Shown here: positions 17,881-17,914 of the stretch, piece after piece
Numbering within the stretch: position 1 is the first letter of the stretch
Layout of the letters: the number at the start of each line of letters is the position of its first letter
NCBI GenBank assembly: GCA_031268315.1
Contig: JAIRXK010000021.1
Location: forward strand, 8,859-72,858
DNA from: Puniceicoccales bacterium
GTDB lineage: Bacteria > Verrucomicrobiota > Verrucomicrobiia > Opitutales > JAIRLM01
Direction: 5' to 3'
DNA length: 64,000 bases
Made by a program: the position numbers and the translations under genes
The notes under the pieces: generated by a model
What the model was told of the DNA's origin: nothing
Databases searched by the model: none
The model's input: only the letters and a program-made list of their open reading frames with translations

Positions 17881-17914
17881 TTGCCATTGACAGCTGGCAA
17901 ATTTCACACATAAT
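17881..17914 (+). promoter_or_regulatory. promoter with overlapping inverted repeat TTGCCA-N8-TGGCAA
   Basis: TTGACA 17887-17892, 16-nt spacer, CATAAT 17909-17914. Perfect 6-bp inverted-repeat arms at 17881-17886 and 17895-17900. AAGGGA SD before the ATG at 17945. Confidence 0.55.

Follow-up and report, generated by a model that had tools for sequence, protein, structure and literature searches.

Is the inverted repeat TTGCCA-N8-TGGCAA, which surrounds the -35 hexamer at three promoters of accessory genes in this DNA, the operator of a regulatory protein? The window, by which we mean the whole 64-kb stretch that was analysed, comes from a contig of 111,016 bp in a metagenome-assembled genome (MAG), and its MutS is 100% identical to MDR1437914.1 from the MAG 'Puniceicoccales bacterium' (Verrucomicrobiota). 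Judged from the sequence, the box is probably the binding site of a regulator. The reading that we place first, with a probability of roughly 0.45, is an operator for a dimeric transcription factor, most likely a repressor, laid over the standard promoter of this genome.

The three sites lie where the sequence-only reading had placed them, and in 3/3 the arms embrace the -35 hexamer, as it had also stated. For site (b) the site itself is present, but the interval given for it, 47389-47407, corresponds to the core CCATTGGCAGCTGGCAAAT and the full site spans 47391-47410 on the minus strand. The sites and the elements of promoter (a) are:

17881-17900, plus strand: site (a), TTGCCATTGACAGCTGGCAA, a perfect inverted repeat TTGCCA-N8-TGGCAA flanking the -35 hexamer.
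17887-17914, plus strand: sigma-70-type core promoter of (a), TTGACA, 16-nt spacer, CATAAT, 11/12.
17892-17902, plus strand: distinctive box AGCTGGCAAAT, filling the upstream half of the spacer and shared without change by (a) and (b).
16412-16431, plus strand: site (c), TTGCCATTGACCATTTGCAA, with one arm mismatch (right arm, G>T) and a poor -10, CGTAAC.
47391-47410, minus strand: site (b), TTTCCATTGGCAGCTGGCAA, with G>T in the left arm and TTGGCA as the -35.

At all three promoters the box is palindromic, 20-28 bp long and situated around the -35 element. The arms are perfect in (a) and carry one mismatch in (b) and in (c), i.e., the complementarity is 6/6, 5/6 and 5/6 at a fixed N8 spacing, which establishes the dyad symmetry. 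With at most one mismatch, TTGCCA-N8-TGGCAA occurs 3 times in the window with 0.39 expected, and none of 100 shuffled sequences yields as many. When a 28-nt consensus is used instead, the sites match 27, 23 and 23 positions, while everything else on both strands (128 kb) matches at most 21. A start codon follows each site at 37-60 nt, and a -35-like hexamer is found in constant register in 3/3. In the case of (b) the ATG, at 47368, is 37 nt away. Downstream of site (a), the predicted transcription start near 17921 is followed by a Shine-Dalgarno sequence, AAGGGA (17931-17936), and an ATG at 17945. Among 15 promoters of the window aligned at the -35, inverted arms that contain G+C and pair at 5-6/6 positions with N8 spacing are found only in (a), (b) and (c); the sole other promoter with such N8 arms is an A/T-only case.

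Some further matches were noted around these sites. A nested 14-bp near-palindrome, TTGaCAG/CTGgCAA, which contains CAGCTG, is present at 17887-17900 (plus) and 47391-47404 (minus). It is built from the -35 hexamer and the right arm, offers an alternative reading of the dyad and has not been retained in (c). The fourth-best match to the 28-nt consensus, TAATTTCCTTTACAAGCTAGCAAATATT at 22766-22793 (minus, 21/28), falls inside a 732-aa repeat-protein open reading frame (ORF), where it encodes DNFLYKLANIL, and was rejected as a coding coincidence. The string CTGGCAAAT recurs as Leu-Ala-Asn codons at 17103 and 19133 and was judged in the same way. Finally, the right-half match ACATCTGGCAAATTTT at 23850-23877 (minus), located in the intergenic DNA from which the 732-aa and 5234-aa genes diverge, has no left arm, no good -35 and a chance-level significance, and was not retained.

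The mutual similarity of the sites is exceptional. For the 15 aligned promoters, identities were counted in all 105 pairs over 6 positions upstream and 12 positions downstream of the -35, with the hexamer itself excluded. Sites (a) and (b) agree at 16/18 of these positions, the highest value of all pairs. The pair (a)-(c) reaches 15/18 and (b)-(c) 13/18, the promoters of known paralogues 12-14, and the other pairs 1-11, mostly 5-9. The block common to (a) and (b) is 22 nt long (20/22 identical), with no detectable homology in the flanks on either side, and both carry the identical 12-nt run CAGCTGGCAAAT in the same register. What sets the motif apart is AGCTGGCAAAT, which is not present in the other 12 promoters, and the dyad consists of this box plus TTkCCA directly upstream of the -35. 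The proteins encoded downstream of (a) and (b) are unrelated to each other, and such a similarity in front of unrelated genes fits a shared operator. When (a) is compared with (c), the 3 positions that separate the -35 from the right arm have all changed, against 1/12 in the arms, and this sparing of the arms is the pattern that would be expected if the arms were under constraint.

In the mechanism that we propose, the 20-bp dyad would span about -40 to -21 with its centre near -30.5, as positioned from the predicted start. A bound dimer would occlude the -35 and thereby block RNA polymerase, and the Inc-like membrane-protein family and the six-gene helical-repeat operon would answer to one and the same factor. 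Binding of a protein, its repressive effect, the positions of the transcription starts and any wider regulon are our inferences. The geometry had been described as that of a dimeric repressor or activator; the repressor fits, but an activator is less likely because the centre of the palindrome lies near -30.5 and not at -41.5 or further upstream. Class II activation, with its site centred at -41.5, does not fit a centre near -30.5, and the 16-nt spacer does not fit MerR-type activation. The presence of a good -35 inside the dyad also suggests repression, and the near-consensus promoter of (a), with 11/12, is the kind that needs a repressor for regulation.

The TGGCA and TTGC-like strings of the box recall sigma-54 elements, and in Chlamydiae, a related phylum, sigma-54 is linked to secretion-effector genes. 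The box could then be an element of an alternative sigma factor, either the -24/-12 element of sigma-54 or one of the extracytoplasmic function (ECF) type. We consider this very unlikely, as site (a) already carries a full sigma-70-type promoter, TTGACA-16-CATAAT. When the three sites were read directly on both strands, none showed the GG and GC of TGGCAC-N5-TTGC spaced 12 nt apart, and the sigma-54 promoter was rejected. Two promoter-like matches on the opposite strands were seen in the same regions: TTGCCA-16-TATGAT at (b), 47391-47418 (plus), and TTGACA-16-CATAAT at 16456-16483 (minus), the latter within the start of the decayed ORF that follows (c) and directed toward mutS. Neither has an obvious target gene.

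An inverted repeat may also act as a hairpin in RNA, i.e., in a terminator, attenuator or leader, or as cruciform DNA, and not as a protein site. Site (a) can indeed fold into a 6-bp stem with an 8-nt loop (-6.9 kcal/mol). However, the folding z-scores of the sites are only -1.5, for (a), +0.4 and +0.5, no hairpin is predicted for (c), and (b) gives a weak and partly different fold. The arm substitutions in (b) and (c) are uncompensated, no T-run follows, no terminator is called at the sites, the element lies upstream of the predicted start, and no Rfam family matches there. An intrinsic terminator or structured RNA was rejected on the z-scores, the uncompensated changes and the absence of terminator calls and Rfam matches, and the chances of any such hairpin or cruciform are slight indeed.

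The genes behind the three sites are as follows:

17945-19767, plus strand: gene driven by (a), two overlapping ORFs of 154 aa (bilobed hydrophobic, Inc-like) and 468 aa.
16459-17362, plus strand: the paralogue that (c) drives, decayed into pieces in three frames, its transmembrane part lost.
39987-47368, minus strand: a string of six closely spaced ORFs behind (b), 133, 167, 446, 584, 810 and 295 aa.

These adjoining genes are annotated as hypothetical proteins (LBI69_02540, 02545, 02570-02595). The two ORFs behind (a) are two frames of one ~610-aa gene, colinear with an intact 609-aa paralogue on another contig, P0130 (LBI69_01420). From this colinearity of two frames with one intact protein, a frameshift is placed near 18350-18388, and its cause could be genuine decay or a fault in the assembly. 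Thus, the 'Inc-like gene' of the sequence-only reading is Inc-like, but it is only the N-terminal piece of a longer, frameshifted gene. The paralogue behind (c) is decayed as described there, with three-frame fragments and the transmembrane part lost, while the string of seven ORFs reported downstream of (b) numbers six by our count. A homologue search with the 468-aa protein returned a single paralogue from the same MAG and none outside it. Some of the six ORFs contain MgtE_N-like helical repeats, and both the Inc-like family and the six-gene operon look like host-interaction genes.

Further features of the window were noted. Two giant paralogues, at 23961-39665 (plus, 5234 aa) and 55735-63972 (minus, at least 2745 aa), share 49% identity over ~2400 aa; the C-terminal end of the 5234-aa protein is long, hydrophobic and Inc-like, and the C-termini of both align weakly. 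Five tandem paralogues (816, 500, 591, 903 and 814 aa) occupy 1602-13520 on the plus strand, each with its own TTGACT promoter. The first has a weak match to a tyrosine/dual-specificity phosphatase domain and the last has long Pro/Gln/Asn-rich repeats. A ~75-nt intergenic repeat (AAAATTATCGCGCTTTCGTTCGCCTAGAGCCGCATTC...GGCCGTAAA) is present in three copies with 87-95% identity (4195-4276, 48577-48659 and 49587-49634); it has no Rfam match at the gathering threshold and could be a small RNA or a dispersed repeat. The G+C content is ~50-53% in housekeeping genes compared with 31-43% in the numerous orphan accessory genes. The closest relative of the source MutS has only 61% identity. The Puniceicoccales bacterium itself is uncultured and probably host-associated.

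Several observations weigh against an operator, and the first group of them concerns how much of the motif is generic. In all upstream regions that were read, the house promoter of this genome consists of an A/T-rich tract, an extended -35, tCCATTGACw, a 16-17-nt spacer and a weak -10 (examples are 1553, 8080, 16325(-), 19942(-), 23573(-) and 53369(-)). CATTGAC is five times denser in intergenic than in coding sequence, and 8/8 intergenic copies point to an ORF start on the same strand 2-60 nt away. In 6/8 the distance is 40-60 nt, and in the remaining 2/8 it is 2-16 nt from an ORF that was probably called too long. The tRNA promoter reads TTTCCATTGACA, with the same left arm as site (b). The centre of the motif (CATTGAC) and most of its left arm (TTkCCA) are thus the generic extended -35 of this genome. 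The -10 elements are another weak point: the search for sigma-70-type promoters found one at (a), whereas (b) and (c) have a good -35 with a poor -10 below the threshold, and promoter prediction finds no good -10 at (b). The palindrome is furthermore not enriched when two mismatches are allowed (10 against 6.1 expected), and generic sequence alone produces an 18/19 match between the tRNA promoter region and the promoter region at 48342.

Some of these facts could mean that the resemblance is due to chance on top of a strong generic consensus, where CATTGAC and the T-rich upstream tract are shared by default. We estimate the expectation of a 20/22 match at ~0.5 when the whole window is compared all against all. 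However, the agreement of (a) and (b) was counted without the -35 hexamer and lies far outside the distribution of the 105 pairs, and the identical run in the same register argues in the same direction, so we regard chance as an improbable explanation.

The second group of objections concerns the independence of the sites. Sites (a) and (c) are colinear in one segmental duplication, with 80% identity over 46 nt of promoter and 68% over 869 nt of coding sequence, and therefore only two independent occurrences exist. Recurrence at non-homologous promoters in constant register involves just two lineages, (a)/(c) and (b), and the proposed link between the Inc-like gene and the helical-repeat operon would accordingly hang on two independent sites. 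In addition, the genes that follow (a) and (c) are both damaged members of one Inc-like family, frameshifted in one case and decayed in the other. The conservation of site (c) is poor evidence of selection, since the gene behind it is a pseudogene. The identity between (a) and (b) also includes the spacer bases AGC and AAT, which a protein reading the arms does not need, and these shared bases hint at copying rather than selection.

It is thus possible, although we hold it to be doubtful, that the box is only a promoter core copied among fast-evolving accessory genes, by shared descent or by short-patch gene conversion, with no dedicated regulator. The dyad would then be incidental, three -35-like hexamers (TTGCCA, TTGACA and an inverted TTGCCA) that happen to stand side by side. 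Accessory genes do duplicate along with their promoters here, e.g., 8132/11076, 1602/4414 and (a)/(c). Sites (a) and (b) agree over a contiguous block and more closely than (a) and (c) do, and an alignment with a 2-nt indel extends a weak similarity of (a) and (b) toward the -10. In addition, 2/3 sites are found at pseudogenised copies. However, beyond the 22-nt block no homology of (a) and (b) is detectable and the downstream proteins are unrelated. A dispersed repeat or the end of a mobile element was also rejected, as only these 22 nt are common to (a) and (b) and the matches in the sequence collections are single, in unrelated taxa and mostly in apparent coding sequence. A perfect 6/6 dyad in fixed register would, by our estimate, arise without function with a probability of ~0.03 over ~25 promoters and several spacings, and between (a) and (c) the arms are spared next to three changed inter-arm positions.

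The third group comes from the gene content and from searches outside the window. No transcription factor gene is present within the 64 kb. Scanning with TTKCCATTGRCNNNTKGCAAAT a collection of 185,579 genomes, one per species and without the source MAG, gave 105 stretches in unrelated taxa with one match each. The sole recurring genome was Hymenobacter sp. H14-R3, in which the sequence around the match is identical on two contigs. A collection of metagenome contigs, likewise without the source MAG, gave at least 120 single scattered matches, and in both scans most matches read as coding sequence. The box was not found in the mutS neighbourhoods of two relatives (MutS 60% identical). In the scans, a motif-matching string, cattatTTGCCATTGACGGATGGCAAATa, recurs with conserved flanks in unrelated taxa (L004, L005, L144, L172, L173, L177, L206 and L219). 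The family of the L004/L005/L144 type was tried as a conserved element and rejected: it has no Rfam match, its flanks read as coding sequence on the opposite strand, and it is unrelated to the window.

If the box is an operator, it is an instance of a well-known kind of element; an operator over the -35 is a textbook concept and its value is therefore local to this organism. A true operator would provide a sequence tag for co-regulated host-interaction genes in a verrucomicrobial lineage without genetics, whose accessory proteins are almost all orphans, and it would point to a regulator that times host-interaction gene expression. One can speculate further that a lineage-specific regulator switches the Inc-like proteins and the helical-repeat effector candidates through a 20-bp operator made of the three -35-like hexamers TTGCCA, TTGACA and inverted TTGCCA. 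This more specific proposal is tentative and rather unlikely as it stands; if true, it would give the first cis-regulatory handle on host-interaction genes of Verrucomicrobiota. If the box is instead only a copied promoter core, it documents that effector-like gene families spread along with their promoters.

Among known systems, the operators of the MarR and TetR families contain TTGCC/GGCAA-like half-sites in dyads over the -35 and -10, and they repress by occlusion. Examples are marO, TTGCC-N2-GGCAA, and the RutR site, TTGACCAnnTGGTCAA. The spacing in marO-type operators is 2 bp compared with 8 bp in the box described here, and the DNA alone assigns no regulator family. A literature search turned up no operator matching the TTGCCA/TGGCAA inverted repeat.

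The 8-bp spacer is shared by the E. coli LexA operator, CTGT-N8-ACAG, where a dimeric repressor binds a short dyad over the core promoter (PMC8565304). The inner arms of our box, GCCA-N8-TGGC, have the same 4-N8-4 geometry. However, the sequence is different and the genes downstream are not DNA-repair genes, and the LexA motif of Verrucomicrobia is cited in PMC7739468 as one of the direct-repeat type.

In Legionella, an intracellular bacterium, effector genes are controlled by regulators that recognise short inverted repeats embedded in promoters, both global (PmrA and CpxR) and local, such as LciR with ATTACAAnnTTGTAAT, and a local regulator may have very few sites in the genome (PMC6989116). 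These regulators are activators of the winged-helix response-regulator class whose sites replace the -35, whereas here a good -35 lies inside the dyad; the phylum is also different and the motif is unrelated to our box. What the two have in common is that host-interaction genes are joined by a short regulator site, in our case a putative one, in the promoter just upstream of the -10.
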